A DNA stretch of 64,000 bases. Source: a bacterium. GTDB lineage: Bacteria; Omnitrophota; Gorgyraeia; Zapsychrales; Zapsychraceae. Below, piece after piece: positions 5,078-27,346 of this stretch. Each line of letters opens with the position of its first letter. Positions within the stretch are counted from its first letter, which is position 1. Position numbers and translations under genes: made by a program. The DNA lies in assembly GCA_030429765.1 (NCBI GenBank), contig JAUIER010000001.1:129302-193301 (forward strand). The letters run 5' to 3'. The notes below the pieces were generated by a model, which was not told the origin of the DNA, did not search any database, and saw only the letters and a list, made by a program, of their open reading frames with translations.

Positions 5078-8000
5078 ATGACAATAACTCCTTATAACAA
5101 AACTATTCAATTGATTCGCCAAACAATCGCGGGATTAACGGCGTTGTGTTTGATCAGTGTATCATTGTATCCGGGCGTGGCGTATGCCGGGGATCCTGAC
5201 CGTTTCACATTACCCGGTCCCGGTCAAATGGTCCGCACAACATCTGCGTTCGCGCCGGCGATGATCCGCGGGGTGAGTATTCATGCCGATAATCCGTTAA
5301 GATTTGATTTTATTATCGACCGCGGTGACAAACCTCTATCGGGTCAGCTTCAACAATCTGAATATCAAAAACTTGTAAAATATTTCCTGACATCGCTGAC
5401 AGTTCCGGAAAAAGACCTGTGGGTCAATCTTTCCCCGAATGAAAAAGACCGAATCATTCCGGAGAAATTTGGTTTAACCGAAATGGGACGCGATCTTCTG
5501 GGCCAGGACTATCTGCTTAAACAACTCACGGCGTCACTCATGTATCCCGAAGAAGAATTGGGTGAACAATTCTGGCAGCGTGTCCGTCAGCAAACGTTTG
5601 AGAGGTATGGTCATACGGATATTCCGTTAAACGCGTTTCGCAAGGTTTGGATTGTTCCGGAACGCGCGGTGGTGTTTGAGGACAACAACACAGCCTACGT
5701 GGCGGATTCGTTTTTAAAGGTGATGCTCGAGGAAGATTATGCTGAACTGCCTCATTCATCAATCACCGACGATTCAGATGAACAATTTTCAATGTCAGAT
5801 GTTGTCCGTGAGATTATTGTTCCTGAGTTGGAACATGAGGTGAATTTTGGAGAACATTTCGCTCAATTGAGGCAAATTTACAGCGCTTTGATCCTGGCGA
5901 CCTGGTACAAACAAACACTTCGTGAGAGTTTGTTGGGACAGGTTTATGTGAACAAGAATAGAGTACGAGGGGTAGATGTTCAGGACAGTTCAGCGAAGGA
6001 AAAGATTTACGCGCAGTATCTCAAGGCGTTTGAGATCGGTGTTTATAACTACATCAAGGAAGAGTACGATCCGGAGTCTCAATCCGTGATTCCACGTCAG
6101 TATGTTTCGGGCGGAGCGGGTTTGCAGTTGTCCGGAGTGCTGAGTCGGTATCAGCGACTGACAAGTTTACCACGGCGGGCTTACAGCAATATGCGCGCGT
6201 TAGCGCGAAAAGCATTAGGTTCGACTGGGCTGGACCGGATCGTGGTGGATTTGAGGGAGGTTCCCGCGTCGGAACAATTGATCGTTGACGCGGCCATGTT
6301 GACTGACCCTGCGGCGTTTGTTTTTGCGGATGAGTCGGAACAGATCCTGGATTTGACGCGTCAGTTGCGTCATCTGCCATCGCTGAATGATTTGGCCGGC
6401 ATCGTTGAGACCAATCAGAAATATTACGAACAGACCATTGCATGGCTGGTCCATCAGTTTATGCTGGGCGCATTTGACCGTCCGCTCATGGCCGATCTGG
6501 CCGAAAGCATTCGCTCATTACGTGTATCCAAGGCCCGGGTGTTTGATCGGATCCTGAAAGGTCGAGTTCAGCTGGATGGGATCGACATGGTGAAATATTT
6601 TCTTAAGGGAGATCTCGAGACCATGGTTGATGATGTTCAGCGGTCGCTGGCAGCTCGGCGGACCATTTTGGCAACGGAGATCGAATCAGCCCAACAATTA
6701 GCCGCTTCCGTTCAATCAATTACCATAAATGAAACCAGTCCGCTGGTGCTATGGCATACCGTGCGGGCGATGGGAGAGATCGCGAACAATCCTGCAGCTC
6801 GACCGGAACTGCGACGGTACGTGCTCGGACAGATCATCGGTTTTTATCTGACATTTAACCGGATAGGTTTTGCGGCGCCGATTCGAACACAAGCCGTTCA
6901 AATTTTGCGGCAAACTGGGATTGTTCAAATCAGCCGATTTCTATTGCCTCGTTTGGATCCGTTTTCGCGGACATCCACGACCGATACGTCCAATTTCGAG
7001 AAAAATTCCACAATCCGCGCGCGGATTGTCGACACATTGTTCGAGATGATCGACGCACCGAATCTCGATGATGAAATTCGGCAGTCGATTTTGCTCAGGA
7101 TGTTGGCCGTCAGTCATTACGATCCGGACCGCAACATTCGTCGACAGGCCAAACGCGAATTACGCCGTCGTAACATTTCGGAAGCGTCACTTCAGACCGT
7201 CGTCTCAAAAGAGGCGGATTCAGCTGTTCTGTCTGAACAACCGGATTTACTATCGGCCGAATGGCGCTATGGCCGGATCGCAGAGGATTTGTTAATCTTG
7301 TTAGAGGCAAACGGATGGGACGGTTACGGGATTGATTTTGAAACGGCATACAACGAAGGCGCATCGGTTTGGTCGTCGGTATCATGGGGGAAAGAAGGAT
7401 TGTGGATCCATGTGCATTTACATCATCCGGATAAACTACGTGCCAATCAGCCATTTTTGAATAACGGTTTGATGTTCCGGATAGAGAGCTACAACGATGA
7501 CCGTATCAAATTGACGGATCCATGGATTGAAGCAAATCCCGACGGAGTTCAGGCCTTTCAGCATGGCTTTGTCTCATTGCAAAGTATCGTCGATCGTGAG
7601 TCAAGTTTGGGTCAGGATGTGATTGAGCGAATGATCACATTGGCCGAAGAATCGGCAAACCGGGAAAGAGATGATATCCTGGCGGGAATTCGTCGAGGAA
7701 AGAAAATCCAGATGCTGATCGCGGATGCGGTTGAGCCGGACCAGGCCGTAGGTGTGCGGGATATGCTGGCCTATGTTGAATTCGGCCGTGCGATTCGCAG
7801 CGAGGCGCAGCAGGCCTATGGATTTAAATTTGCCCCAATGAATTTCAGTTCAGACGGTTTAACGGTCCTGGAAGATGGATCCATCCAAACCGATGCCGCC
7901 GTTTTGTCGTCGCCCGGCGGGATTACGATTATTCAGGATGCGATTACCCGTCTGGATGGAACAACTCTACGAGAGCGTCTGTATGCTTTATTGGAAGAGC

Positions 8001-8686
8001 GGGCGATTGATCTTGAAGAGTTCCCACCGCAGATCGGCAAGACCGAATCAAACTTTAAACAGATGATGGCCGGCGGCGGATTCCGCATTACACCGGAAGT
8101 TCTAGTCAGGAGCGCCCAGATTCTCGACGTGAATGTCGTTGAATTGTATACCGGTCTGCCGTTGGAATCTGCGCTTCAGCAGATTGATACGCCCGGCGGT
8201 CGATTGATGCTGCTTCGTATGACGCGAGGATTGACGCGAGTCGATGTTAAAAATAAAGTCGAGGCCCGCACGGCCCGCAAATTTAACGCCAATCAACTGA
8301 CCAAGTGGGAGACCTCCGAGACGATTGAGGACGATACTGATCTTGATGTCGTGGCGGATGTCATCGGCACGGATGTCAGCACAATTATGGATGGCGTAGC
8401 GTCAGTGTCGACGGATGATCAAGCTATGTCATCAATGGAAAAAACCGATGCCGTCGGGGGGATCGATTTGAACCCCGTTAACATGAACCTTCAAATCAAG
8501 CGCGATTCCCAAGGGGTTCCGCTGCCACTAAATGTTCAGCCGATTGATTCCATGCAGATTGATGGCTTTAGTCCCGTGATCATTCAAATCCTTCCCATTC
8601 ATCAATTGCCGCTGTTATCTGATTTGCTCGACGATACCGAGCAACCTGTCATCGGTTCTCTTCAAATTGATCCCAACAAAGGGTAA
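5078..8686 (+). CDS. large secreted protein of unrecognised family, paralog A (about 1200 aa)
   Basis: Start chosen at the internal ATG giving signal peptide MTITPYNKTIQLIRQTIAGLTALCLISVSLYPGVAYA. N-terminal ~400 aa collinear with the 17904 protein (NPL+F.F..D.G, WVNLSP, GQDYLLKQLT, VWIVPE, ILATWYK..L..SLLGQ.Y...NRV). Conserved C-terminal GGID-N block. Confidence 0.65.
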   Translation: MTITPYNKTIQLIRQTIAGLTALCLISVSLYPGVAYAGDPDRFTLPGPGQMVRTTSAFAPAMIRGVSIHADNPLRFDFIIDRGDKPLSGQLQQSEYQKLVKYFLTSLTVPEKDLWVNLSPNEKDRIIPEKFGLTEMGRDLLGQDYLLKQLTASLMYPEEELGEQFWQRVRQQTFERYGHTDIPLNAFRKVWIVPERAVVFEDNNTAYVADSFLKVMLEEDYAELPHSSITDDSDEQFSMSDVVREIIVPELEHEVNFGEHFAQLRQIYSALILATWYKQTLRESLLGQVYVNKNRVRGVDVQDSSAKEKIYAQYLKAFEIGVYNYIKEEYDPESQSVIPRQYVSGGAGLQLSGVLSRYQRLTSLPRRAYSNMRALARKALGSTGLDRIVVDLREVPASEQLIVDAAMLTDPAAFVFADESEQILDLTRQLRHLPSLNDLAGIVETNQKYYEQTIAWLVHQFMLGAFDRPLMADLAESIRSLRVSKARVFDRILKGRVQLDGIDMVKYFLKGDLETMVDDVQRSLAARRTILATEIESAQQLAASVQSITINETSPLVLWHTVRAMGEIANNPAARPELRRYVLGQIIGFYLTFNRIGFAAPIRTQAVQILRQTGIVQISRFLLPRLDPFSRTSTTDTSNFEKNSTIRARIVDTLFEMIDAPNLDDEIRQSILLRMLAVSHYDPDRNIRRQAKRELRRRNISEASLQTVVSKEADSAVLSEQPDLLSAEWRYGRIAEDLLILLEANGWDGYGIDFETAYNEGASVWSSVSWGKEGLWIHVHLHHPDKLRANQPFLNNGLMFRIESYNDDRIKLTDPWIEANPDGVQAFQHGFVSLQSIVDRESSLGQDVIERMITLAEESANRERDDILAGIRRGKKIQMLIADAVEPDQAVGVRDMLAYVEFGRAIRSEAQQAYGFKFAPMNFSSDGLTVLEDGSIQTDAAVLSSPGGITIIQDAITRLDGTTLRERLYALLEERAIDLEEFPPQIGKTESNFKQMMAGGGFRITPEVLVRSAQILDVNVVELYTGLPLESALQQIDTPGGRLMLLRMTRGLTRVDVKNKVEARTARKFNANQLTKWETSETIEDDTDLDVVADVIGTDVSTIMDGVASVSTDDQAMSSMEKTDAVGGIDLNPVNMNLQIKRDSQGVPLPLNVQPIDSMQIDGFSPVIIQILPIHQLPLLSDLLDDTEQPVIGSLQIDPNKG

Positions 8687-8799
8687 GATGTCTTGATTTG
8701 AGACATTTTAGGTCCGAATATTTATCATGTATTCCTTTATCCGGGTTCACGATGTTGTTAGACTACACTAGTGTTTAACTCGTCTAACCGGAGGTCGGA

Positions 8800-9414
8800 A
8801 TGAAAAAATTGATGCTGACACTGTTGTTTGCCGTTTGGATTGCCGGTATACCGGCGAACGCCCAGGCGCTATTGCTGTACAAGGATACATTCCTCAACGC
8901 GACACGCGAGCAAATCGATCCGGTCGTCGGGGTGCAGGGATTTTATGTGAATGATTTTGCGACGGAATTCTTTAACGGCTATACGATTGATTTATCTGAT
9001 CCGCTAACTGTGGGATCGATCTTCACGTCTTCCGCCGGTGATGTGGGCTTCGGGACATTTGCCGCTTATCTGACTGATGGTATCGAGCAAAGCTGGCAGG
9101 CGCGGTTTGTATTGAGCAACGGCATTCAGGCGTTGCAGCGGTCCGAGCCGTTGAGTTTCGGAACGAGTCTCTTTAGTGCCAACAATATCGATCTGGCCGG
9201 CTACCGTATAGATCAACTACAATTTTCGGTCGATTCGGTGGAGGCCCTGGCTGCGGCTTCCGGCTTTAGATGGACAACCAGTATCTCGGTCTTCGGCGAT
9301 TTGGATTCAACGCCCAATGCCATTCCTGAACCGTCAACACTCCTGCTCCTGGGCATGGGGATGACTGGAATGATTATACGTCGACGTCGTGACAGCGATC
9401 GTGCTGCGGTGTAA
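8800..9414 (+). CDS. PEP-CTERM sorting domain protein (204 aa)
   Basis: signal peptide; C-terminus IPEPSTLLLLGMGMTGMIIRRRRD = PEP + TM + Arg cluster. Confidence 0.65.
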   Translation: MKKLMLTLLFAVWIAGIPANAQALLLYKDTFLNATREQIDPVVGVQGFYVNDFATEFFNGYTIDLSDPLTVGSIFTSSAGDVGFGTFAAYLTDGIEQSWQARFVLSNGIQALQRSEPLSFGTSLFSANNIDLAGYRIDQLQFSVDSVEALAAASGFRWTTSISVFGDLDSTPNAIPEPSTLLLLGMGMTGMIIRRRRDSDRAAV

Positions 9415-9450
9415 GATTGACCCCGCGGGAGTTCTCCCTATAATAGAAGA

Positions 9451-10878
9451 ATGTTATCCAACCGGTATCAATATACCATCCGGCGTCTGATTTATTCATG
9501 CGCCATCGTGTTTCTATCCCTATTTTCAAATGTGATCTATGCGCCGGCGATGGATCGGTCACCCCAGTCCGAGTCACATGACCGTGAGTGGGTCGTGATT
9601 TGGCATGACGAATTTGACGGTGATCGTGTCAATCCTGCCAAATGGCGCATTGAAGACGCCGCGCTGATCAAAAACAACGAACAGCAATACTACACGCCGG
9701 AAGATGTGTATCTGGAAGACGGACATCTGGTACTCCGCAGTCAGCAGCGTCCGATGGGCGGACGTGATTACACATCCGGATTGGTCGAGACCAAGGGGTT
9801 GTTTACATTCACCTACGGGCGGGTGGAGGTGCGCGCGCGATTACCCAAGGGTAAAGGCATTTGGCCGGCGCACTGGATGATGAACGCCGTCGGAACCTGG
9901 CCGCCCGAGATCGACATCATGGAGATGTTGGGGCATCGGCCAACCAAGATTCATATGACCAATCACTTTGGTGTTCATCCACGCAACTCCCGGCACGGCG
10001 GGTATTATGAAGGGCCGGACTATTCAGCAGACTTTCACACCTATGCGATTGAGTGGACACCGGACGAAATAAAATGGTTTATCGACGGTGTTGAACGGTT
10101 TAGCACGCGAAAGTATGTTCATGATGTCCCGTTTTACATTATTCTCAACACGGCGGTCGGCGGCAATTGGCCGGGCTACCCGGATGAGACTACGGAGTTT
10201 CCGCAGTATCACCACATTGACTACGTTCGCGTTTACAAAAAGAATGTGCCGGGGACGGGATTTGTGTATCTGACAGCTGAACATGGACAGGTGAGCCAGC
10301 AGCCGAACGAACACCGTTATGCCTTGGGTACGACGATTCAGTTGGCGGCCAAGCCCGATATCGGATATAAATTTTCGCATTGGACAGGTGATTTGGAAGG
10401 GACCCAGAATCCGTTGGATCTGACCATCGCCGGCAATGTTCGGGCGGCAGCAGTTTTTGCTGAAGATCCGGACGCCCCCGGATTAATTTCGTCCCGGGCG
10501 GCGGTGCTGTCATCCTCGCAGGAAAGCGATCAATTGGGGCCGGCCAACGTGGTGGATGGAAATCTGGGAACGCGTTGGTCCTCAGAGTTTTCAGATCCGC
10601 AATGGATCCAGATTGATTTGGGGGAAGCTCGTTTGATTGAGGCGATGCGGCTGAATTGGGAGAATGCGTTTGCCCGGAGTTATGCGATCGCGGTATCCGA
10701 TGATGCCCTCACATGGAGTACGGTCTATGCCAAGGCCGATTCTAACGGAGGGGTTCATAACATACGGCTGGTCCAATCCGTCTCGGCCCGCTACATCCGG
10801 CTTACGGGAACGGAGCGGGGCACTCAATGGGGCTATTCACTCTGGGAATTTGAGGTATTCGGTCAATCGCAGGAGTAG
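9451..10878 (+). CDS. glycoside hydrolase family 16 (beta-glucanase/laminarinase-like) with C-terminal F5/8 type C (discoidin) domain
   Basis: GH16 catalytic motif EIDIMEM; WHDEFDG; C-terminal RWSSEFSDPQWIQIDLG typical of discoidin domains; N-terminal signal/TM. Confidence 0.75.
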   Translation: MLSNRYQYTIRRLIYSCAIVFLSLFSNVIYAPAMDRSPQSESHDREWVVIWHDEFDGDRVNPAKWRIEDAALIKNNEQQYYTPEDVYLEDGHLVLRSQQRPMGGRDYTSGLVETKGLFTFTYGRVEVRARLPKGKGIWPAHWMMNAVGTWPPEIDIMEMLGHRPTKIHMTNHFGVHPRNSRHGGYYEGPDYSADFHTYAIEWTPDEIKWFIDGVERFSTRKYVHDVPFYIILNTAVGGNWPGYPDETTEFPQYHHIDYVRVYKKNVPGTGFVYLTAEHGQVSQQPNEHRYALGTTIQLAAKPDIGYKFSHWTGDLEGTQNPLDLTIAGNVRAAAVFAEDPDAPGLISSRAAVLSSSQESDQLGPANVVDGNLGTRWSSEFSDPQWIQIDLGEARLIEAMRLNWENAFARSYAIAVSDDALTWSTVYAKADSNGGVHNIRLVQSVSARYIRLTGTERGTQWGYSLWEFEVFGQSQE

Positions 10879-10933
10879 CAAAGACAGTCGATATTTGCTT
10901 TGTCAGGGCCTTGGATTAACGGTACAATTAATT

Positions 10934-11338
10934 ATGCAAAAAGGTTTCACGCTTCTTGAACTGATCATTGTGATCATCATCGTCGGTGTGTTGGCGTCGC
11001 TGGCCTTGCCACGGTTCTTCAGTATGGTGGAATTCGCCCGATCAGCCGAGGCCATGTCATCATTGATGACCGTACGGCAGTCGATACTTCGCTGCGGTCA
11101 ATATAACAATAACTATATGGGCTGCGATACCTTCGCCGATATCGATATTGATGATCCGGGCTCTGAGCCGGGCGCGCATTTTTCCTATGCCTGGACGGTT
11201 ACCAGCGCCGACGCCTTCACCGTAACCGCTACTCGTAATACCATCAACGGCGGCTCCGCGGGAGACACCGTTGTCGTGTCTGTCGCCCCGGCCGGCATCA
11301 GCCGCTCGGGCACTTCCGCCTTTGCCGGAATCAAGTAA
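10934..11338 (+). CDS. type IV pilin-like / pseudopilin protein with prepilin N-terminal methylation motif
   Basis: MQKGFTLLELIIVIIIVGVLASLALP = class III signal (G|FTLLE) ; ORF-track start at 10664 overlaps upstream gene, internal ATG used. Confidence 0.7.
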   Translation: MQKGFTLLELIIVIIIVGVLASLALPRFFSMVEFARSAEAMSSLMTVRQSILRCGQYNNNYMGCDTFADIDIDDPGSEPGAHFSYAWTVTSADAFTVTATRNTINGGSAGDTVVVSVAPAGISRSGTSAFAGIK

Positions 11339-11433
11339 AATTCCCTCACGAACCTACCCAGCCGTCCTCGCATTTATCTTTATCGACCGGGATGATATAA
11401 TACTTTATATTTAATCTACGGAGAATTGAACAT

Positions 11434-11766
11434 ATGGACGACAAACGACTGAAACTATTGTCTCAGGTGCGGATGAAGATCGCGCTGTGCAGCGCGCTGT
11501 TTTTGTTTATTTCGATCTCCATTTGTACCCGAAAGCTGCTGGGATGGTCGGTATTCGGGGAGGCCTTTGAATTTATTTTTTTCTGTCTGGGATTTGTGAC
11601 ATGTATGGCGGCCTATCAAAAATGTGAAGATGTGATGGACAGCGAATACAAGCAGATACGGACCGGGATTATGCAATGGTATTTTATCGTATCGATGACC
11701 ATGTTTGCGGCCTTCGCGGCGCTGGAGTTATTGTTATTATTGAAATCTCTAAAAGAGCCGTTTTAG
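11434..11766 (+). CDS. small membrane protein (110 aa)
   Basis: three hydrophobic helices; no motif. Confidence 0.3.
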   Translation: MDDKRLKLLSQVRMKIALCSALFLFISISICTRKLLGWSVFGEAFEFIFFCLGFVTCMAAYQKCEDVMDSEYKQIRTGIMQWYFIVSMTMFAAFAALELLLLLKSLKEPF

Positions 11767-11772
11767 TCAAAA

Positions 11773-12102
11773 ATGAAGATGCATAAATGTCCCAGTTGTG
11801 GAGAGGATGGAATTACAGCGGATGGATTTCTGAATTCTTCTCGAGAACATGAAGCCCAGTGTACTAGCTGCGGAATTTATTACTTCTCAGAAGTTCAAGT
11901 GACTTGGGCCGAAGGCACTTTTCTGATTTTTGATTTCATATTCATAGGCGGCGGGCTCATTACCTTGATTTTGGCTTTTGTATATCCTATATTCGGGATT
12001 CTACTTGTTACATTAATTATAGTTCGACTAGTTTATGCGTATTTGATAGAGCGTAGGGGGAAGATTCGTAGAATCCTTATTCGAGGAAAGGATTATATGT
12101 GA
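11773..12102 (+). CDS. zinc-ribbon membrane protein (109 aa)
   Basis: CPSCG...CTSCG double CxxC followed by two TM helices. Confidence 0.4.
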   Translation: MKMHKCPSCGEDGITADGFLNSSREHEAQCTSCGIYYFSEVQVTWAEGTFLIFDFIFIGGGLITLILAFVYPIFGILLVTLIIVRLVYAYLIERRGKIRRILIRGKDYM

Positions 12103-12127
12103 TGGATACGTTAGAGAGTAAGACGGA

Positions 12128-12328
12128 CTATCGATACTTACTCTTATAATAATAATACCCCGACATCACGAGGCAGTGGGCGGCATATAGGTAGAGCATG
12201 ATCTTCCAATGGCGTCCTCTGGAGATCAGGGCCACGAGAATGGCCACACAAATAAATCCAATAAGCACATTGCGTTCACGCTGAAGGATTTTGTTGAATT
12301 TGAGTTTCATACATAAACATTCTAGCAC
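12128..12328 (-). CDS. small membrane protein (66 aa)
   Basis: single hydrophobic helix; only clear minus-strand ORF in this block. Confidence 0.25.
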   Translation of the reverse strand: MLECLCMKLKFNKILQRERNVLIGFICVAILVALISRGRHWKIMLYLYAAHCLVMSGYYYYKSKYR

Positions 12329-12337
12329 ACAGAGAAT

Positions 12338-12721
12338 ATGAATCGAATCGTTAAAAGATGGGCCGGAATTTATTTTCTGTTTCAGGGGATATCCGGTCTA
12401 GTTTGGTGGAGTGTACTGTTGATCGTGCCGGAAAGTCGGTCTGTATTTTTTCCGGTTATCCCCGAGATTGCATTATTGGGGTTTTGGCTGGCCGACTTTG
12501 TGTTTTTTATTTTGGGATCATTGTTGTTGGGTTTTACTCTGATAGCAGGATTTTCGATGAATCGGCTTTTGTTTGGTGCTGTCGCAGGCGGGATTGTTTA
12601 TGCCGGACTTTATTGTTTGGGGTTGAGTATTCTGTCAATGTCCGGGTGGATGTGGACTATACTAATGATCGGTGCATCTGCTATAACGATTTATTTGGTT
12701 TGGGTGTGCGTAAATGAATAG
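12338..12721 (+). CDS. membrane protein (127 aa, 4 TM)
   Basis: hydrophobic profile; its stop overlaps the next gene start (translational coupling). Confidence 0.4.
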   Translation: MNRIVKRWAGIYFLFQGISGLVWWSVLLIVPESRSVFFPVIPEIALLGFWLADFVFFILGSLLLGFTLIAGFSMNRLLFGAVAGGIVYAGLYCLGLSILSMSGWMWTILMIGASAITIYLVWVCVNE

Positions 12722-13262
12722 ATTTTTGAATCAATTCAAAGTTTCACGCTCTGATCGCACCAGTTGGAATGTCATGAAGACCATGCTGCAAACTTCAGTG
12801 TTTTGGAGCATTTTTTTGTGGATTCTACCCGTCGGGATTCAACATATAGAATCTGGGATGGGGCTTAATCCGTTTGAGTTTGCAGGGCAGAAGCACGTGG
12901 CTGTTGTGATTTTTGTTTGCGCCAGCGTTTTAGGTCTCGCGAGTGGGCTGACCATGTCGGCCAGAGGCGTCGGGACACCTTTGCCGTTAGATTGTCCTCA
13001 AAAATTAGTCGTGACTGGACCCTACCGATATGTACGCAATCCAATGGCCATTGCCGGCCTGTCTCAGGGATTTGCTGTTGGTCTGGGCTTGGGATCAATA
13101 GGTGTGATCCTTTATGTCGTGATTGGCATGTTTGTTTGGAATCAGTGGGTCCGACCGATTGAGGAATTGGACCTGTTAAACAGGTTTCAGCAGGCTTACA
13201 CCGAATATTGCGGACAGGTCCGATGCTGGATTCCAAATTTCGATGGATATCAGCCAAAATAG
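12714..13262 (+). CDS. isoprenylcysteine carboxyl methyltransferase (ICMT)/phospholipid methyltransferase family membrane protein
   Basis: LVVTGPYRYVRNPMAIAGL matches the ICMT/PEMT family signature (G.Y...RNP.Y.G); multiple TM. Confidence 0.6.
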   Translation: MNRFLNQFKVSRSDRTSWNVMKTMLQTSVFWSIFLWILPVGIQHIESGMGLNPFEFAGQKHVAVVIFVCASVLGLASGLTMSARGVGTPLPLDCPQKLVVTGPYRYVRNPMAIAGLSQGFAVGLGLGSIGVILYVVIGMFVWNQWVRPIEELDLLNRFQQAYTEYCGQVRCWIPNFDGYQPK

Positions 13263-13357
13263 TCACGGCTCAGGTTGTCGGTTTCCATCTTGAGGTCTGT
13301 CGGCTCAAGGGGTAAAATGAAGCCAATAGTTGAGATTGATCCGTAAATAAACGAAAG

Positions 13358-16096
13358 GTGGGGATGGAATTTTATCCGTTAATTTGGATGGCCAGTTTGA
13401 TCGGGTCAGCCGTGATCTGCAGTCAAAAGGGTGTCAGTCGATGGTATATCTTCTGGACGCTGTTTTTGGGGCCACTGGGATTGTTGATCACCTGGCTGGC
13501 CACGCCAAGTACCGGGCCCCGGGAGTCGCAGCAGATCATTGATCTCAAGGAAGAGATTACACATCTCAAGCTGAATGTGGCCGATCTACAACGTCGGATG
13601 CGTGAGGTGGAGTCCTCTAAAGCTCCGGTGCAGCCGGCCCCACCAATAGAGGCGGATGTCCCCTCCGAACCGGTCACCGAAGCGAAGGGATCAGAACCCG
13701 AGGCGCGGCCGGTTGAGATTGATGAAACTCCCTCGGAACCTGAAGTGGTTCTTCCGCCATCAGATTTTGACAGTCTAGTTGAATCCTCACCACTGCGTTC
13801 CAAACCTCAATGTTCGCCAAGCGCCATGCAGGCCGCTACTCAAAAGGTTACGCAATCACGCGAGCCGTCCAAGGCGGAAATCAATTTCGGTCAGTTTTGG
13901 CTGAACAAGATCGGGATTGTCATCTTCACGCTGGGGATCGGATTTTTTATCAGCTATTCATTTAAATATTTTCCGCCGATCGTTAAAAACGCGTTTGGTT
14001 ACGCGATTGCCGGCGGCTTGTTTTATCTCGGTCGTCGTTTTGAAAAAGACCGGCAGATGCGCCATTACGGGTTGGCCTTGATGGGCGCCGGCTGGGCGCT
14101 GACCTATTTTGTCACGTACGCCCTGCATCACTTTGACGCGTCGCGTGTGATTGACAATCAAATCGTCGACATGTGTCTGCTGTTCGTGGTGGCGGCGGGG
14201 ATGATGTGGCATTCGATGAAGGTCAAGTCCGAGACGATGATGATGGTCAGTCTGGGTACGGCCTATGTCACATCGCTGGTCGGGACGGTGACGGCTTTTA
14301 CCTTTGTCAGCTCGATGATTTTGGGATGTGTCGCGGTGTTTTTACTCTATCGGTTTCAGTGGGTCAAGACGTTGTTCCTGGGCATCGGTATGACATACGG
14401 GATCCATCAGTTTTTTATTGCGCCGTCGTGGGGGATTTTTGATGCTTTGATAGATCACGGTTCACGGCCGGAACCCCGATTAAACCTGATGTTTCTGTCG
14501 GCCTATTGGGCGCTGTTTTTTATAGGAACGCATGTGGTGCGCGGGACGGATGATTGGCAAAAAAATTGTGTATCGGCCGCAAACTTTATGAACTTCACAT
14601 TATTCTTTGTGATGAGCGGTGGGCTGTTTCAGACGTATTATCCGGACTATCGTGTGATCACGTTGGTCCTGATGGCCGTCGTCTATGCCGCGGCCGGAGT
14701 ATACGGACGGGTTCGCGGGCAGCGGATTTTGTACGCCGGTGACTGCGTCGTGGCCGTGTTCGCGTTGACCCTGGCGACGTCCATTCAATACTTGCCGCAG
14801 ACCAGTCTGATGATCGCTTTGATTCAAACGCCGTTCCTGTATTTTATGGGAACGCGGTTTAAGGACCGTGTCCTCAAATATCTCAGTTTCGGATTGAGCG
14901 GATACGCGTTGATCCGATTTGTGATCGCGCTCACGGATGTCCTGCGGCCGTACCATGCCTATGGAGCGGAGCCAGTTTATGAGTGGACGGCGTTGGTGGG
15001 CACACTGGCGATGGGGGCCTGTTTTTGGTTGGCTCGACCCGCATCGACCGAGCGGACCGACACACTCCTGGACATCAAAGATGCCTTTGTTGTCCTGACA
15101 TCATTTTATCTCAACGCGTTTCTTTGGCTGAAATTTGACGGACCATGGCTGCCTTTGGTTGTTTTCCTAGAGGTCCCGTTGATGATATGGGCGGCCCGCC
15201 GAATCCGTGAGGATATGTTACACATCGTCGCGCAGGTCTTGACCTGGTTGGCCGTGTGTTTGCTGTTCATTGATTTTCCGACGAGTAACAAGACGGTTGG
15301 AGTTGGATTTTTGGGGCTATCCTGGACGAACGTGGAGTGGACATTCCTTTTAGGGAGCGTTTGTTTGTGGATCAGTTGGGCGTTGAGTCGGTATACGCGT
15401 GTGTCGGATCAAGAGGACGTGATCGGCGGATTGACGGAGCAGGCGTACTCCGCGTTGGCCGCCTTTTTAATGACGTGTTGGGTTTTGTCAGTATTCGAGC
15501 GACACTGGATGACCGTTGCTTTGACGGTGGAAGCCCTGGCCCTGTTTGGATTATCCCGCGGGTTCAATCTCAAACGGTTACGGATTTACGCGTATATTGT
15601 TTTGGGAATTGTGCTTGCTCGGTTTATTGGTGTGGATCGGTACGCATCGCTGGGCGGCGGACAATGGCTGATGATCGCTTTCGAATTAGTGAGTGTTTTT
15701 GGGCTGTACGTTGTCTCCACTCTCGAACGGGAAGACAGCGCGAATGATGAGACCATTGAAGTTGAATCCGGCGGAATATTTTTCGGGTTTATCCTCATGA
15801 CGCTGTGGAGTATTTTCAAATATGCCGCATGGGGGTGGCGGTCGCTGTGTCTCGGGGTGGGAGGGGTATTGCTGATCCTCTTTGGACTGGTCCGGCAGGA
15901 CAAGGTGTCGCGAATCGGCGGTTTTGGACTGTTGGCGTTGTCATTAGTCAGGATCATTCTCGTCGATCTGGCCCGCCTGCCGACGATTTTTAAGATCATC
16001 AGTTTTATTATCATCGGAGGTCTTTTGCTGGGCTTGTCTTTCATGTATAATAAAAGCTTTTCCGGAGACAAATCTGATTCTCCATCCGATTCCTGA
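13358..16096 (+). CDS. large polytopic membrane protein (912 aa), DUF2339-like architecture
   Basis: N-terminal TM pair, coiled-coil (IIDLKEEITHLKLNVADLQRRMREVE), Pro/Glu-rich linker, then more than 20 hydrophobic helices. Confidence 0.5.
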   Translation: MGMEFYPLIWMASLIGSAVICSQKGVSRWYIFWTLFLGPLGLLITWLATPSTGPRESQQIIDLKEEITHLKLNVADLQRRMREVESSKAPVQPAPPIEADVPSEPVTEAKGSEPEARPVEIDETPSEPEVVLPPSDFDSLVESSPLRSKPQCSPSAMQAATQKVTQSREPSKAEINFGQFWLNKIGIVIFTLGIGFFISYSFKYFPPIVKNAFGYAIAGGLFYLGRRFEKDRQMRHYGLALMGAGWALTYFVTYALHHFDASRVIDNQIVDMCLLFVVAAGMMWHSMKVKSETMMMVSLGTAYVTSLVGTVTAFTFVSSMILGCVAVFLLYRFQWVKTLFLGIGMTYGIHQFFIAPSWGIFDALIDHGSRPEPRLNLMFLSAYWALFFIGTHVVRGTDDWQKNCVSAANFMNFTLFFVMSGGLFQTYYPDYRVITLVLMAVVYAAAGVYGRVRGQRILYAGDCVVAVFALTLATSIQYLPQTSLMIALIQTPFLYFMGTRFKDRVLKYLSFGLSGYALIRFVIALTDVLRPYHAYGAEPVYEWTALVGTLAMGACFWLARPASTERTDTLLDIKDAFVVLTSFYLNAFLWLKFDGPWLPLVVFLEVPLMIWAARRIREDMLHIVAQVLTWLAVCLLFIDFPTSNKTVGVGFLGLSWTNVEWTFLLGSVCLWISWALSRYTRVSDQEDVIGGLTEQAYSALAAFLMTCWVLSVFERHWMTVALTVEALALFGLSRGFNLKRLRIYAYIVLGIVLARFIGVDRYASLGGGQWLMIAFELVSVFGLYVVSTLEREDSANDETIEVESGGIFFGFILMTLWSIFKYAAWGWRSLCLGVGGVLLILFGLVRQDKVSRIGGFGLLALSLVRIILVDLARLPTIFKIISFIIIGGLLLGLSFMYNKSFSGDKSDSPSDS

Positions 16097-16843
16097 TTGT
16101 TTATGCCGATTTATATCATTACAATTTGCCTTCAAGTGGCCTGCGCCGTGCACTGTATCAAGACACAGCGGAATTTCATGTGGTTGTGGCTGATCCTGCT
16201 GTTTCCCATCGTCGGCGTGCTGGTGTATTTGATTGTCGAGGTTGTCCCCGAGGTGCAGGGAGAGGCGGCCCGTATTCCCAAGAAAAAAATCCCGCGAAAT
16301 CCCGAGAAGCACATTCAAATGCTCAAGGATCAGATTGAGTTCAGTGATAGTATCGAGAACCGAGTTAATCTGGCCGAGGCGTACATGTCGCTCAAACGCT
16401 ATCCCGAAGCGATCGGTGTGTATCAGGAATGTCTAAAAGGTATGTACAGCGATGATTTCTATCTGCTGTTGGGATTGGCCTACGCCTATTTTAAAAACAA
16501 GGACTATGAACAGACGATTATGACGCTGGAAACCATTGAGGCGCAGGATACGTCCGAGAAGCTCAGGGAACGAAAGCTCCTCGAAGCGCAGAGCTATGAA
16601 CAATTGCAGAAGTATGATCAGGCCTTGAGCCTGTATCAGAGCATTATCAATTCTATTGGTGAGGAAGCGCGCTGTCGCTGCGCGTTGCTGCTATGGAAAA
16701 TGGAGCGCAAAGAAGAGGCGGCCAAACTGTTTAAGGAAATTCAGGTCAATGCCAAACACTCGGACGCTAAATACCGACGGGAACAGAAGGCCTGGATCGA
16801 TGCCGCCCGAAAAATGCTCGATCAAATGAATAAAACATCGTGA
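16097..16843 (+). CDS. membrane-anchored TPR-repeat protein
   Basis: two N-terminal TM helices followed by TPR-like Ala/Tyr/Leu helical repeats (AEAYMSLKRYPEAIGVYQECL, LGLAYAYFKNKDYEQT). Confidence 0.55.
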   Translation: MFMPIYIITICLQVACAVHCIKTQRNFMWLWLILLFPIVGVLVYLIVEVVPEVQGEAARIPKKKIPRNPEKHIQMLKDQIEFSDSIENRVNLAEAYMSLKRYPEAIGVYQECLKGMYSDDFYLLLGLAYAYFKNKDYEQTIMTLETIEAQDTSEKLRERKLLEAQSYEQLQKYDQALSLYQSIINSIGEEARCRCALLLWKMERKEEAAKLFKEIQVNAKHSDAKYRREQKAWIDAARKMLDQMNKTS

Positions 16844-16876
16844 TCGATTTTAAAGAACTACAAAGGAGTCAGGATT

Positions 16877-17716
16877 ATGGATTTAGAAGCAACCCTTAAG
16901 TCATTGGATATTAACACGATTATCGCCGTGGGCGGACCGATCTTGTTCAATCTGGTTTATGCGATCGTTATATTCGTCGTCGGAAAATGGTTGGCCAAGA
17001 GTCTGGCTAATGTCACGCATAAATTGATGAACCGCGCCAAGGTGGATGTGGCGTTGATTGGTTTTGTGACGGCGATTGTCCGCACGGGGATTACGGTTTT
17101 CGCGATTGTCGCGGCGATTGAAAAATTGGGAATTAAAACAACGGGATTTTTGGCGATCCTGGGGGCGGCCGGTTTGGCGATCGGAATGGCGTTACAGGGA
17201 ACCCTCTCTAATTTTGCGGCCGGTGTGATGTTGATTCTCTTTAAACCGTTTAGTGTCGGTGATTTTATTGAAGGTGGCGGCGTAACCGGGACTGTCAAGG
17301 AGATCCAGATCTTCAATACCGTGTTGAACACGGGAGATAACCGCAAGATCATCGTTCCCAATTCAAAAATTGGAGGTGATACCATTACCAATTATTCGGC
17401 GATCAGCCGACGCCGAGTGGATCTGGTTATCGGGGTCAGCTACGATGACGATCTCAAGCAGGCCAAATCCATCCTGATGAATATCCTGACCTCGGATGAA
17501 CGTGTTCTCAAAGATCCGGCCCCGGTGGTGGCCATCTCTGAGCTGGGTGACAGCAGTGTCAACATCATCGTCCGTCCTTGGGTGAAGCCTTCGGATTACT
17601 GGGCGGTCTACTGGGATACCTTGGAGAAGTCCAAATTTGAGCTCGAGGCGGCCGGATTATCGATTCCATATCCGCAACGGGATATCCATATGATTCCAGC
17701 GGAATCAAATGCCTAA
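16877..17716 (+). CDS. small-conductance mechanosensitive channel, MscS family
   Basis: 3 TM + conserved pore helix/beta-domain LAILGAAGLAIGMALQGTLSNFAAGVMLILFKPFSVGDFIE...TGTVKEIQIFNTVLNTGDNRKIIVPNSKI. Confidence 0.8.
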   Translation: MDLEATLKSLDINTIIAVGGPILFNLVYAIVIFVVGKWLAKSLANVTHKLMNRAKVDVALIGFVTAIVRTGITVFAIVAAIEKLGIKTTGFLAILGAAGLAIGMALQGTLSNFAAGVMLILFKPFSVGDFIEGGGVTGTVKEIQIFNTVLNTGDNRKIIVPNSKIGGDTITNYSAISRRRVDLVIGVSYDDDLKQAKSILMNILTSDERVLKDPAPVVAISELGDSSVNIIVRPWVKPSDYWAVYWDTLEKSKFELEAAGLSIPYPQRDIHMIPAESNA

Positions 17717-17812
17717 AAACGCGGATTCCGGGGGTGAAAGAATTTGTGCTTGGCGGGTGCGAATCTGTATGGTATCCTTATATATACGTTAAAAACGTGT
17801 TTTTCACACCAT

Positions 17813-17849
17813 ATTCCCCAATCCCGCAGTGAAACGTCTGTCTTTAGTT
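17813..17849 (+). promoter_or_regulatory. conserved upstream element ATTCCCCAATC-N18-CTTTAGTT, 55 nt before the paralog B start
   Basis: matches the element at 4983-5020. Confidence 0.4.
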
Positions 17850-17903
17850 TCTCAAACATAGAATTGTATCTTAAGTATAAAGCTTACAGGTGAGGGATTA
17901 TCT

Positions 17904-20900
17904 ATGGACAGGAAACAAGGATTTATTTCGGGGCTGGAACGGCTGATCGGCATCACATTGTCGGTGATATTTTTGATGACATCTGTCGCTGTTCCGGTAA
18001 CGTCTGGTCATGATCATGAACTTCCCAAACTGGGAACACTTGTCAATCCAACGCCCGCGCATCGTCCGATGCTGTTTCAGGGAATTGAGATCCATCCCAA
18101 CAATCCACTCAAAATAAGTTTTCTATTCGATCCCGGTGAAGAACGGGATTCATCTAATTTTAAAGATCAGGCTGACCGGTTGATCCGGTACTTCCTTGCG
18201 GCGTTGACCGTTCCCAAGTCTGAAATGTGGGTCAATCTTTCGCCATTTGAACAGAACCGGATCATGAGCGAGAATCTCGGTGCCACGGCCATGGGACAGG
18301 ACCTGCTGGCGCAGGATTACCTGCTCAAACAACTCACGTCATCATTACTCCATCCGGATTCTGAATATGGACGTAAGTTTTGGTCCAAAGTTCACGCATT
18401 GGTCTATGAAAAATATGGATCCGTGGACATGCCCGTCGACACCTACAACAAGGTATGGATTGTCCCGGAATCGGCCGACGTGGTCGAACACGAGACCGGG
18501 GCCCGTATCCGCGACGGACAACTGAACGTGATGTTGGAGCGGGATTACATTGCGATGACACGCGGACAAACGACTGTTTCAAATGTGACCGAGGAGCAGC
18601 TGGAGTCGGGACATAACATTCAGCAGGAAGCCCTGCGTGAGATCATCATTCCGGCTATTAAACGCGAGGTCAATGAAGGGCAGACCTTCGCGCCGCTGCG
18701 GCAAATGTTTCATGCGATGATCCTGGCGACGTGGTACAAACGATCATTGTCCCGGAGTTTGTTGGGACAGCAATACGCGGACCAAAACAGAGTGGCTGAT
18801 TTGTCCAGCGGTACGTCCAATCAAACCCGGCAGATCTACGAGCAATATGTCGCGTCCTACCGTCGCGGGGTGTACAACTTTGTGCGTGAGGACTATCACA
18901 CGTCAACCGATTCGACCGTCACACGTCAGTACTTTTCCGGCGGCATTTCCACGGATAAACTTGAGCTAAAGGTCGCCGCGGATCGGCAGCGTTATGTCGA
19001 GACCGATCTGGCGATGGTGAGTGTATATCTGAACGATGGATCACCGTTCAGTCAGGCCATGCTGTCCCGTGAAGATCGACTGGCTGAGTCATTACGGCTC
19101 CGGCACGAATCGATGGGTGAGCTCAAAGAGGCCTTTGGTCGTTTTTTCCCGCATATTGACTTTGGTTCAATGGGAATTTTTCAGGGATTTGTGGAATCAT
19201 TTTTTATCCCTTGGTCGGAAGGATATCGTCAGGCTGAACGTCAGATTCGGGACAGCCTGGTCGCGCCCTATCTCTCCCAGATCGAGGCAATGGGAGAGGT
19301 CAGTTCGGCCATGGCCTTTATGAACCCGATGTGGGGGATGCAGCAACAGATCTGGCGGCCGATCACCGAGCAGGCCCGCAAGATGCGTAAGACGATTGAC
19401 TACGTCAAGTCCATCGAAAACGAGACGCCGGAGTCATTCTCGCCGGGGACAACGATCTTGAGGGTGCCGGGACTTTTCTATCTAACAAAGATCGAATCCC
19501 TGGAAGGGCAGACGGTTAATCCCGATTTACCGCCCGCGCTGATCATCACACCGCATTCCGGTCATGACGGTCGGTCATTGGCCGATTACACCAATAAGGA
19601 CCGGACCGGTTCCAACAGTCTGGCCCAGACATTCAAAAATAGAGGGTATGAAACGTATATTCTGGTGTGGGAAAGTTCACGTGAGCTGCTCGACATTGGA
19701 GACTTACAGGAAGCTGTGCATCTGAGCGTCCGGACGATCGGTCAGAAGGTTGTGATTGGCGGATTATGCCACGGAGGGGCCGTCGGCGCCCATTATATGG
19801 GTGTGATGCCGGACAATGTGGCGGGATTGATCCTCGCCGGGGCGCCGGTCAATACGCATGTCGGGGACAACGATGTCACACAGGCCGCGCAGATGGATAT
19901 GTCGATATACAACTGGTTGCAGTTTGGTCATGGCGTGCCGGATGTGTATCCCGGCCTGGCGCAATTGCATGCCTTTAAGCATCTGGGCTTCAACGGCGGA
20001 TATGATAAACGCGTGACGGCGTGGAAGCGCTTGGTGGAAAATATCGATGACATTGATTATGTGGAGCGTGACCGGATTTTCCGCATCTGGTTTGAAAATG
20101 TCAACAATATCGGTTATTTCGTTGACTGGATTGACCAGGTCTTTAAACGCAATCGATTTGTCTTTGGAGATTTAACATTCCGTTTGGGGCAGAAAAAGTT
20201 TCGTTCGAGTCCGGCTAATTTCCGGCCGGATGTCCCGATCGCCACGATCGAAGGGGCCGCGGATGATATCACGCCGCCGCCGACGATCACCATTGACGAA
20301 ATGGCTGAAGTGTCCGATGATCCGCAAGGTCTTTGGGCGTTTCTGACGCATGGTATTGTCAGCCGCGAACGTCTGGGGGATCAGGAACTCGATGGACAAC
20401 CGCTATTTGATTATCTGTCCGACAATGGATATATCGATATCCGCCAGACCGGTGATGTTAATTACGGCTATGTGAACCAGTCCCGGCTGGTGCCGGCGCT
20501 CAATGAGTACGCGAAAAAGCTCAATGCCTTTCGGTTTGCCGTCGGTGATTTTCAAGACCGGGATGATACGGCCGAGTCAGTTCTGCCGAAGATTCAGCTT
20601 TTAATTGACGCGGTCGCGGCACAATCCGGCCTTCCGGAATTCAGCGCCACACACTATGCCGAGGCACTGCGTTGGCTCAACGCGGATATTTCCTTGTATG
20701 GAGTGCTGGATCGAGATGAGCTGCGGAATTTGGACGGGCAACTGGTTGAGGCTATCGAGTCTGAATTATCCGCGCCGTTGGACCAATTGGATAACGAGCA
20801 GTTGACGGCGTTGAATCAGACTTTCGAGGGTATCAAACTCAAACGGCTGATCGCGATGCAGGTGTTTCCCGAGGCGGCTCCGGATACCGTTCGCCGCGCG

Positions 20901-21626
20901 GATGCGGAGTATGTCCTGGATATTGGCTACAAGAATTTGAAAATGTTAGAGCGGGCCTGGCATCATCGCCTGTTCTCGGATTCGGATGAAAAGAGCGTCA
21001 ACAGCACACCGGGACAGCTGGCGGTGATGCGGCAACCGTTTGCCGACATGGCCTTTGAGCGTGATTTTGAGCGTTTCCGGTCGATCGACGCTCCGTTTAT
21101 TCGTTATGCAGATCCGGACAAATTGCGTGACTCGTTTGAAAAATTATCGGCGTTGCGCGGACAGAGCTCGGATGTGTTTTCGATTGTTCCCACGGATAAG
21201 GATCTGCAGCAATTGAAATTGGTTCATGGCGGCCACATCGGGATCTACAACGGAAGCCGTTCCCAGCGGGCCTGGCGGGATATCCTCGCGATCTTTGAGC
21301 GGCAATGGAAGGATCAGGGGCGCAGCGGATTTAAGCTGCCGGAAGACGACGATCTGATTTTGGCCGTCGAGGACAAGGTGGTCTATTTTGACGAGGCCAT
21401 GCTAACAGAGCGGGATAGGCCGGCGGAGGTTTCCTCGGAAAAGGTAGGGGGGATCGACTTCAATTCAGATTTTATGCAGATGAATATCAGTCGCGAAGAC
21501 TCCGGTGTCATCATCCCGCGCTTCAACGGTCCCACACCGGCCATCGACTTCGATCATTTGTCACCTGTCATCCTCAATTTGACCGCTGCCGAAATGCCGC
21601 TCTCAAATCCGACAAATCGTCCATAG
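17904..21626 (+). CDS. large secreted protein of unrecognised family, paralog B (1240 aa), with internal alpha/beta-hydrolase-like segment
   Basis: Signal/TM at N-terminus; N-terminal 400 aa collinear with paralog A; central segment YILVWESS...VIGGLCHGGAVGAHYMG...AGAPVNTH resembles an alpha/beta-hydrolase nucleophile elbow (G-x-C-x-G); C-terminal GGIDFN block shared with paralog A. Confidence 0.65.
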   Translation: MDRKQGFISGLERLIGITLSVIFLMTSVAVPVTSGHDHELPKLGTLVNPTPAHRPMLFQGIEIHPNNPLKISFLFDPGEERDSSNFKDQADRLIRYFLAALTVPKSEMWVNLSPFEQNRIMSENLGATAMGQDLLAQDYLLKQLTSSLLHPDSEYGRKFWSKVHALVYEKYGSVDMPVDTYNKVWIVPESADVVEHETGARIRDGQLNVMLERDYIAMTRGQTTVSNVTEEQLESGHNIQQEALREIIIPAIKREVNEGQTFAPLRQMFHAMILATWYKRSLSRSLLGQQYADQNRVADLSSGTSNQTRQIYEQYVASYRRGVYNFVREDYHTSTDSTVTRQYFSGGISTDKLELKVAADRQRYVETDLAMVSVYLNDGSPFSQAMLSREDRLAESLRLRHESMGELKEAFGRFFPHIDFGSMGIFQGFVESFFIPWSEGYRQAERQIRDSLVAPYLSQIEAMGEVSSAMAFMNPMWGMQQQIWRPITEQARKMRKTIDYVKSIENETPESFSPGTTILRVPGLFYLTKIESLEGQTVNPDLPPALIITPHSGHDGRSLADYTNKDRTGSNSLAQTFKNRGYETYILVWESSRELLDIGDLQEAVHLSVRTIGQKVVIGGLCHGGAVGAHYMGVMPDNVAGLILAGAPVNTHVGDNDVTQAAQMDMSIYNWLQFGHGVPDVYPGLAQLHAFKHLGFNGGYDKRVTAWKRLVENIDDIDYVERDRIFRIWFENVNNIGYFVDWIDQVFKRNRFVFGDLTFRLGQKKFRSSPANFRPDVPIATIEGAADDITPPPTITIDEMAEVSDDPQGLWAFLTHGIVSRERLGDQELDGQPLFDYLSDNGYIDIRQTGDVNYGYVNQSRLVPALNEYAKKLNAFRFAVGDFQDRDDTAESVLPKIQLLIDAVAAQSGLPEFSATHYAEALRWLNADISLYGVLDRDELRNLDGQLVEAIESELSAPLDQLDNEQLTALNQTFEGIKLKRLIAMQVFPEAAPDTVRRADAEYVLDIGYKNLKMLERAWHHRLFSDSDEKSVNSTPGQLAVMRQPFADMAFERDFERFRSIDAPFIRYADPDKLRDSFEKLSALRGQSSDVFSIVPTDKDLQQLKLVHGGHIGIYNGSRSQRAWRDILAIFERQWKDQGRSGFKLPEDDDLILAVEDKVVYFDEAMLTERDRPAEVSSEKVGGIDFNSDFMQMNISREDSGVIIPRFNGPTPAIDFDHLSPVILNLTAAEMPLSNPTNRP

Positions 21627-27341: not shown

Positions 27342-27346
27342 CGTTG

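Follow-up and report, generated by a model that had tools for sequence, protein, structure and literature searches.

A 64,000-nucleotide stretch of an Omnitrophota genome (GenBank assembly GCA_030429765.1, contig JAUIER010000001.1, positions 129,302 to 193,301 of the forward strand; hereafter the window) carries two large open reading frames (ORFs), A and B, whose products belong to a protein family that has expanded greatly and is nearly restricted to Omnitrophota. The architecture of the family is constant: a signal peptide, a conserved N-terminal domain (N domain), a variable middle of 71 to 4,370 amino acids (aa), a conserved C-terminal domain (C domain), and a short acidic tail. We refer to the variable middle as the payload. 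A preliminary description of the window had presented A and B as a pair of diverged paralogs; the family they represent instead extends across the phylum, numbers thousands of proteins, and is present many times over in individual genomes.

ORF A (5078..8686, + strand) encodes 1202 aa, and ORF B (17904..21626, + strand) encodes 1240 aa. Both are 100% identical to database entries (gene call P0389 for A and protein P0121 for B). The longest open frame of A spans 4922/5078..8686 (+); because the database gene call has 1202 aa, we placed the start at the ATG at 5078. The genes lie 12.8 kb apart from start to start, with a gap of 9.2 kb between them; these values and the two protein lengths replace the preliminary figures of ~1250 aa and 13 kb. 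BLASTP aligned aa 45-346 of A with aa 40-347 of B (44% identity over 309 aa, E 2e-82) and the two C-terminal blocks with each other (37% identity over 57 aa, E 2e-6). The resemblance is real and far beyond chance. Outside these two blocks, BLASTP produced no further alignment of A with B, and the middles are unrelated. No third copy is present in the 64-kb window, where tblastn found A and B only. All of the sequence blocks listed in the preliminary description are present (WVNLSP, (G/A)QDYLLKQLT, VWIVPE, ILATWYK..L..SLLGQ, GGID(L/F)N, and GLCHGG), as is the conserved C-terminal block starting at GGID(L/F)N that it had assigned to both proteins. The collinear N-terminal region is likewise shared, although its length is ~310 aa after the signal peptide rather than ~400 aa.

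With the N-terminal 369 aa of B as the query, a homolog search returned 153 proteins (E down to 1e-100, 40-47% identical). Nearly all were from Candidatus Omnitrophota metagenome-assembled genomes (MAGs), several from the same MAG, and all were annotated as "hypothetical" and were without Pfam domains. A second family search gave 640 matches (E down to 1e-100), and many relatives end in the same GGID(L/F)N block. Listed matches reached at most ~1.75 times the length of the query (645 aa for the 369-aa query and 2164 aa for the 1240-aa query); the search seems to be length-filtered, so that long family members are hidden when the query is short. We also searched 1.84 billion representative proteins (clusters at 50% identity) with a 58-position profile of the C domain. 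It matched 5,473 clusters at E ≤ 1e-3, of which 1,909 were at E ≤ 1e-10, and in every case the match lay at the very C-terminal end. The N domain was present in all but three of the listed matches of at least 900 aa. Those three and the shorter matches without an N domain have no signal peptide, and several have no initial Met; they look 5'-truncated.

A scan of one genome per GTDB species with a core alignment of the N domain identified at least 587 loci in species-representative genomes, and the N-domain hidden Markov model (HMM) recovered both ORFs in the window. C-domain pairing, tandem arrangement, and gene neighborhoods were analyzed in the best 80 of these loci (hereafter the 80 loci). 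All 80 are from Omnitrophota MAGs, a few of which are bulk-labeled "Planctomycetales." A terminal C domain followed the N domain in 52 of the 65 N-domain ORFs that end inside their locus. Family genes occur in tandems of two or three at 16 of the 80 loci, and single MAGs supply five or six of the 80. A viral origin was rejected, with only three matches found in 2.9 million viral contigs.

The N domain extends from LPGPGQMV to PRQYVSGG in A (5210..6118, +) and from LPKLGTLV to TRQYFSGG in B (18021..18944, +), as delimited by BLASTP of the two proteins against each other and by family matches. Its signature, common to both proteins, comprises WVNLSP, QDYxLKQLT, NKVWI, LRQ...ILAxWYK, and YFSGG. 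The C domain is single and terminal in both proteins and has the signature GGID(L/F)N...RDG.GVPLP...G..PVI..I.P. In A, it extends from VGGIDLN to PVIIQILPIHQLPLLS (aa 1126-1181; 8453..8620, +) and is followed by a 21-aa acidic tail; in B, it extends from VGGIDFN to SPVILNLTAAEMPLS (aa 1181-1234; 21444..21605, +) and is followed by a tail of 6 aa. Across the family, the tail is acidic, has a median length of 15 aa, and contains no transmembrane segment. Invariant glycines delimit both domains: ..SGG closes the N domain, and GG opens the C domain. Minimal members consist of the N domain, a short linker, and the C domain (P0110, 474 aa; P0049, 500 aa), while the largest member among the matches listed has 4,828 aa.

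We found no known relative of either end domain. Scans of A, B, and their end domains against Pfam, NCBIfam, and PHROGs gave no match over the N and C domains. In comparisons with PDB sequences, phmmer returned 0 matches for A and B, and a 102-sequence family profile returned nothing at E ≤ 10; Foldseek found no significant match for the end domains among PDB folds. The earlier statement that these blocks resemble no known domain is thus borne out. An AlphaFold 2 (AF2) model of P0049, in which the two domains are joined by a 90-aa linker, gave the N domain a predicted local distance difference test score (pLDDT) of 85-97. The modeled N domain is an alpha/beta structure that combines three beta-hairpins with some nine helices, each 15-28 residues long, and the linker is disordered. 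In the AF2 model of B, the N domain had a pLDDT of mostly 75-93, and the C domain was of low confidence. Invariant polar residues (N, E, R, D, K, and Q) are found throughout the N domain, in WVNLSPxExxR, QDYxLKQ, NKVWI, EVNxG..F..LRQ, and WYK. Because these invariant polar residues are many, the N domain probably binds something specific or is catalytic.

The payloads vary widely. Precomputed Pfam annotations of relatives include enzymes of carbohydrate, energy, and cofactor metabolism (PGM, PGI, UGPase, NDK, GAPDH, PGK, PEPCK, PPDK, NAD synthase, quinolinate phosphoribosyltransferase, ThiG, and alanine dehydrogenase), sugar-modifying and transfer enzymes (SDR/epimerases, glycosyltransferases, and starch synthase), and signaling or regulatory domains (GGDEF, receiver [REC], PP2C, HD, and helix-turn-helix). 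Nudix, methyltransferase, metallophosphoesterase, and HEAT-repeat payloads also occur, together with a few extracytoplasmic types, namely glycoside hydrolase family 26 (GH26) and an M48 peptidase with a 3D domain. In a local Pfam scan, payload domains were full-length and high-scoring, with 659 bits for PGI, 369 bits for PGK, and 354 + 184 bits for PEPCK; an NAD synthase payload scored 219 bits and occurs together with a cytidylyltransferase.

The payload of A (6119..8452, +) is an orphan. A protein homolog search returned no homolog of it besides A itself, and its sole Pfam signal was HTH_31, below the cut-off (E 0.006). By eye, we read HEAT-like helical stretches in this region and XRE-type helix-turn-helix-like segments near 8195-8377.

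The payload of B contains an alpha/beta-hydrolase-like region (aa 539-790; 19518..20273, +), delimited by HMM matches and by orthologs. The preliminary description had recognized this segment correctly, but had taken it for an insertion into paralog B; in every family member, the whole middle is the exchangeable payload. Similarity to the PhaC/PhaZ HMMs spans aa 569-790. B matched TIGR01836 (class III PhaC) at E 1.7e-8 and 33.9 bits, against a curated cut-off of 365.3; TIGR01849 (PhaZ) at E 4.9e-5 and 22.3 bits, against a curated cut-off of 300.75; and PF06850 (PHB_depo_C) at E 2.5e-5 and 24.3 bits, against a cut-off of 27. The nucleophile elbow (aa 620-625; 19761-19778, +) reads GLCHGG in B. 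B has two full-length orthologs, P0122 (61% identical) and P0123 (44% identical). The elbow is GLCHGG in P0123 and GLSHGG in P0122 (columns 701-710 of alignment A4), so that Cys and Ser are interchanged among orthologs, as would be expected at a nucleophile position. In an alignment, the elbow of B coincides with the Ser elbow of a lipase of known structure. B and its two orthologs also have GAADDITPPP and GGHIGIYNGS in common without any change. These two motifs resemble the Asp and His motifs of PhaZ/PhaC and are candidates for them. The Asp motif candidate, read from the ortholog alignment as GAADDITPPPT, lies at 20253-20285 (+), and the candidate catalytic-His motif lies ~310 aa past it at 21228..21257 (+).

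B is like class III PhaC and PhaZ in its G-x-C-x-G-G elbow and its weak HMM similarity, and its conserved DDI and GGHIG are candidate counterparts of their Asp and His motifs. It differs from them in the ~310-aa insertion before the putative His, in the signal peptide ahead of the domain, and in the N and C domains that bracket it. Foldseek with the B model returned no hydrolase match, the queried region having a pLDDT of 22-45. Given the scores below cut-off, the Ser-bearing ortholog, and the failed structure model, the relationship to PhaC/PhaZ can be claimed at the superfamily level only. Of the PhaC-like Cys elbow proposed in the preliminary description, the Cys in G-x-C-x-G stands, accompanied by the weak PhaC/PhaZ matches.

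All 245 complete N-termini of family members carry a hydrophobic segment. The n-region is net-positive in 236 of them, and a small-x-small site is present in 239, typically in the form ...PP.S.AQ immediately before the presumed cleavage point. In the same number (239/245), a helix-breaking Pro and the small-x-small site come after the hydrophobic region (h-region). As far as leader sequences can tell, this layout is that of cleavable Sec signals. A begins with a Sec-type signal peptide (5078..5188, +; MTITPYNKTIQLIRQTIAGLTALCLISVSLYPGVAYA↓GD, the arrow marking the predicted cleavage site), read from the sequence, whose layout matches the family N-termini. B has a signal-peptide-like N-terminus (17904..18008, +) with an uncertain cleavage site. 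Since both proteins start with a signal-peptide-like segment (...VAYA↓GD in A), the earlier designation "secreted" is reasonable, in the sense of export across the inner membrane. Other signal types were rejected on the leader sequences. There was no consistent twin-Arg as in Tat signals and no G↓FxxxE as in prepilin (class III) signals; the lipoprotein-like "LSC" occurs in one subclade only and is followed by a normal AxA site.

Short motifs recur at the payload borders. Family proteins contain 0.089 copies of D-x-A-M-(L/S/V) per 100 aa, 9-fold more than shuffled sequences (0.010). The motif clusters at the borders: 36% of proteins have a copy in the 100 aa that follow the N domain, where the interior rate predicts 7%, and 15% have one in the 45 aa that lead up to the C domain, against an expected 3%. 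With a relaxed motif definition, the figures were 67% and 33%, respectively. Motif scans placed a copy at both payload borders of A and of B. In A, DAAML (aa 404; 6287..6301, +) follows the N domain, and DQAMS (aa 1114; 8417..8431, +) lies just before the C domain; in B, SQAML (aa 383; 19050..19064, +) follows the N domain, and DEAML (aa 1163; 21390..21404, +) precedes the C domain. A second linker motif, (A/S)SSP(V/M/I), recurs across the family. The border motifs, together with the Gly-Gly at the domain edges, may be processing sites, a suggestion that we offer as speculation.

Family genes sit among housekeeping genes at the 80 loci. Clustering of their neighbors identified no conserved partner, the best candidates being an Lnt-like gene and an ABC-F gene, each at 7 of the 80 loci. 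The dedicated secretion system or sortase-like partner that had been raised in the preliminary description was thus not found adjoining the family genes. The window itself is ordinary chromosome, with genes for PEP-CTERM proteins, a glycoside hydrolase family 16 (GH16) protein, a pilin, DUF2339, MscS, an LpxL-like protein, and a TonB-dependent receptor, as well as ATP-binding cassette (ABC), two-component, and UvrD genes. With no conserved neighbor and an ordinary window, any machinery that recognizes the end domains must be encoded elsewhere. Because no partner adjoins the family genes, the C block, which had been put forward as a secretion or sorting signal, is a candidate for that role rather than an established one.

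From this architecture, we infer that the end domains are shared handles for sorting, anchoring, or delivery after Sec export, whereas the payload carries the function of each protein. We put the probability of this reading at roughly 50%. In the proposed mechanism, the signal peptide would first direct translocation through the cytoplasmic membrane. Thereafter, the two end domains would act as common handles, recognized by shared but unlinked machinery for sorting, anchoring, or delivery, with the cell surface, vesicles, or a host cell as the destination. The several copies per MAG, some in tandem, and the lack of a conserved neighbor fit machinery of this kind. The payload would be the working part. 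For B, it would be an alpha/beta-hydrolase from the PhaC/PhaZ superfamily with a thiol nucleophile (Ser in one ortholog), which would most plausibly cleave polyesters or esters; for A, it would be an orphan helical region with helix-turn-helix-like segments. The D-x-A-M-L motifs and the invariant Gly-Gly at the borders may serve to release the payload by processing. Because the payloads need nucleotides or cofactors, they would make most sense in the cytoplasm of another cell or in an assembled extracytoplasmic structure.

Several observations weigh against this reading. ATP-, NAD-, or UTP-dependent enzymes would have no use in the periplasm unless they reached another cell or an energized compartment. 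No secretion, sortase, or protease partner adjoins the family genes among the neighbors of the 80 loci, and 13 of the 65 complete N-domain ORFs had no recognizable C domain. The signal peptides were judged by a simple heuristic applied to the 245 N-termini. For the C domain of P0049, only the first hairpin was modeled confidently (pLDDT 78-88, AF2). Given its invariant polar residues, the N domain may be more than a passive handle and could itself catalyze a reaction or bind a ligand. As for the payload of B, its scores against all three PhaC/PhaZ HMMs fell below the curated cut-offs, and its hydrolase region was unfolded in the AF2 model (pLDDT 22-45).

The reading of the end domains as handles can be extended. 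Omnitrophota have been reported to be ultra-small, host-dependent or predatory cells (PMC10066038), and a second report describes predator RNA inside archaeal prey cells (PMC13153191). Two preprints describe giant proteins of Omnitrophota in which signal peptides occur together with metabolic Pfam domains of the same kinds (10.1101/2023.11.21.568195; 10.64898/2026.06.07.730766). These reports fit the action of payloads in another cell or in an extracytoplasmic structure. It is possible, and we propose it tentatively, that the end domains mark an unrecognized, largely Omnitrophota-confined route of export and assembly, which would bring enzymes out of the cytoplasm of the bacterium, either into a host or prey cell, whose metabolism they would rewire, or into an extracytoplasmic multi-enzyme coat. 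The enzymes concerned would be intact and of the glycolytic, gluconeogenic, nucleotide-sugar, NAD, and signaling classes. The family would then be a one-payload-per-gene form of the giant proteins, with processing sites at the payload borders.

The giant proteins (including Archaeovorins) share with the present family the phylum, the signal peptide, and a repertoire of PGM, glycosyltransferase, starch synthase, Nudix, GGDEF, REC, methyltransferase, PPDK, and HEAT domains. They differ in size, at least 10-147 thousand aa as against 4,828 aa for the largest family member listed, and in their many transmembrane helices. The N and C end domains are not mentioned in the available portions of West-Roberts et al. 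2023 and Nielsen & Lui 2026. The family may be related to these signal-peptide-bearing, multi-enzyme giants.

A different use of the same parts would be structural. The N and C domains could be docking modules, cohesin/dockerin-like or head-to-tail, that polymerize family members into a multi-enzyme coat of the envelope; this would be a non-covalent counterpart of the giant multi-enzyme proteins, with the payload-free members as plain subunits. The existence of such members (P0110 and P0049), the strict pairing of the N and C domains, and a payload repertoire that matches the Pfam modules reported for the giant proteins are all consistent with this idea. The confidently modeled first C-domain hairpin in P0049 may also pack against something. 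However, the C domain was modeled with low confidence in B, and we saw no sign of either domain as an internal repeat beyond weak partial internal matches. We consider a coat of this kind unlikely, although it deserves to be kept in view.

The conserved polar residues raise a further alternative, in which the N domain does the main work of the proteins, as an enzyme or as a module that forms pores or binds lipids, and the payloads have an accessory role. It could, for example, be a membrane-inserting translocator that is distantly like ClyA toxins, or a TULIP-like lipid binder. ClyA-family components (MakE, NheA, AhlB, and MakA) topped the Foldseek lists for two of the models. However, the similarity to the ClyA-family alpha-pore-forming toxins MakA, NheA, and AhlB in these searches was not significant. 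We regard a functional core in the N domain as rather improbable.

The signal peptides could also remain uncleaved as membrane anchors, with the enzymes on the cytoplasmic face and the N and C domains organizing a membrane-associated metabolon. The h-regions are rather long (~16-20 residues), and most payloads are classic cytoplasmic enzymes with high Pfam scores, both of which would suit tethering. A cytoplasmic-face reading has been raised in 10.64898/2026.06.07.730766 for giants that have transmembrane helices and no signal peptide. The net-positive n-region in 236 of the 245 N-termini, in contrast, predicts an N-in, C-out orientation; the Pro and small-x-small site after the h-region in 239 of them is the layout of a cleavable Sec signal; and the GH26 and M48/3D payloads are of extracytoplasmic types. 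In light of these features, we find a cytoplasmic tether doubtful.

Least probable of all is the logic of type I secretion system (T1SS) adhesins, in which the C domain would be an ABC/TolC secretion signal, the N domain a plugging or anchoring module for retention, and D-x-A-M-L the site at which a periplasmic protease frees the payload, as LapG does on LapA: the C domain is indeed small, soluble, always terminal, and followed by a short acidic tail, a short Ala-containing motif comes right behind the N domain, and C39/HlyB-like peptidase domains are reported in giant Omnitrophota proteins, but T1SS substrates are without Sec signal peptides, whereas every family member has one, no RTX repeats or linked genes for ABC, membrane-fusion, or outer-membrane proteins were found, and typical T1SS signals show far less conservation than the C domain does.

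Comparison with characterized systems yielded partial likenesses. The layout of LapA-like T1SS adhesins is similar in its conserved N module, short Ala-containing motif, variable middle, and ~60-aa C-terminal element; the family differs in its Sec signal peptides and in carrying enzymes in place of adhesive repeats, and we found no RTX matches and no conserved neighbor, as would mark an RTX- or LapA-like substrate. The cargo of the type IX secretion system (T9SS) also has an N-terminal Sec signal, very diverse payloads, genes that are scattered and unlinked to the machinery, and a small, soluble, conserved C-terminal domain (CTD) that is common to many proteins per genome. However, the T9SS CTD has 70-100 aa, whereas the C domain of our family has ~56-58 aa, and T9SS cargo belongs to another phylum (Bacteroidota). 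The family has, in addition, an obligatory N domain of ~310 aa and payloads that are mostly cytoplasmic-type enzymes, and a search over its C-terminus gave no NCBIfam or Pfam match at E ≤ 1, including to Por_Secre_tail-type CTDs. Type V autotransporters do not fit either, since the C unit of ~56-58 aa compares with a barrel of at least 250 aa, and no autotransporter Pfam match was obtained.

Polymorphic toxins and MARTX toxins are alike in combining conserved trafficking parts with swapped enzymatic modules and in having many paralogs per genome, and in MARTX the conserved N- and C-terminal regions flank the effector domains. In the present family, the extreme C-terminus is conserved, whereas polymorphic toxins vary there, and there is no conserved downstream immunity gene. 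The payloads include enzymes of housekeeping types (PGI, PGK, and PEPCK), and we found no relationship to either toxin group in sequence or fold. Finally, the C block was correctly described at the outset as distinct from PEP-CTERM. It has no transmembrane segment and no basic tail, its tail being acidic, and A and B have no match to PF07589. Two other proteins in the window do match this family and are PEP-CTERM proteins, one at 506-1702 (+) with a DUF3466 region and one at 8800-9414 (+). Their presence indicates that the genome has an exosortase-type sorting system, which is distinct from the C domain.

The family looks undescribed. The strings WVNLSP, GGIDLN, and GGIDFN occurred in none of the papers searched, and no description of the end domains was found in the portions of the literature that were accessible. 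A SpeD-fusion paper and a lipocone paper were set aside as irrelevant to the family.

Omnitrophota are widespread, uncultured, and ultra-small, are thought to live on other cells, and are probably parasitic. Current discussion of how they act on hosts centers on giant proteins, which are very hard to study. The family offers a tractable handle on this problem, with thousands of proteins of ordinary size that combine a constant chassis with a single, often recognizable payload. It makes testable the questions of whether cytoplasmic-type enzymes are exported, what recognizes the end domains, and whether payloads are released and transferred to hosts. Definitions of the two new domains would annotate a large block of the "hypothetical proteins" in Omnitrophota MAGs and would yield a list of candidate effectors, such as the PhaZ/PhaC-like hydrolase of B.

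Directly downstream of B, a gene at 21693-22295 (+) encodes a 200-aa dual-specificity/tyrosine phosphatase with its own signal peptide (MRLRMELRSQIAFVVMIVCGSSLSPAEA↓N). It matches Y_phosphatase2 and the polymorphic-toxin DSP-PTPase model Tc-R-P (5e-11). By its sequence, this protein is another cytoplasmic-type signaling enzyme that looks exported, a context that favors the reading of the end domains as handles in export.

Other genes in the window encode surface and uptake functions of more familiar kinds. The ORF at 9451-10878 (+) encodes a GH16 protein that also has a discoidin (F5/8 type C) domain. Overlapping it in another frame, the ORF at 10664-11338 (+) has a type IV pilin N-methylation motif along with a ComP-like domain; this pilin gene probably starts further downstream. 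The 1581-aa protein encoded at 28652-33397 (+) contains PKD/K319L-like, Laminin_G_3, galactose-binding, and beta-helix domains, which make it a large adhesin-type or glycan-binding protein, and proteins of this type have been reported from the surface of Omnitrophota. A DUF4331 gene (472 bits; 24842-27280, +) is followed by a DUF4198 gene (27344-28150, +) and, further on, by genes for a TonB-dependent receptor (36182-38095) and a family-5 solute-binding protein (38268-39920). Judging from their domains, these four genes may form an uptake cluster. At 41566-43296, an ABC exporter is encoded without a membrane-fusion protein beside it, a further point against T1SS-like export of the family. GC skew stays positive across all 2-kb bins of the window, and nearly all long ORFs are on the + strand, which suggests that the window lies on one replichore with strong gene co-orientation.

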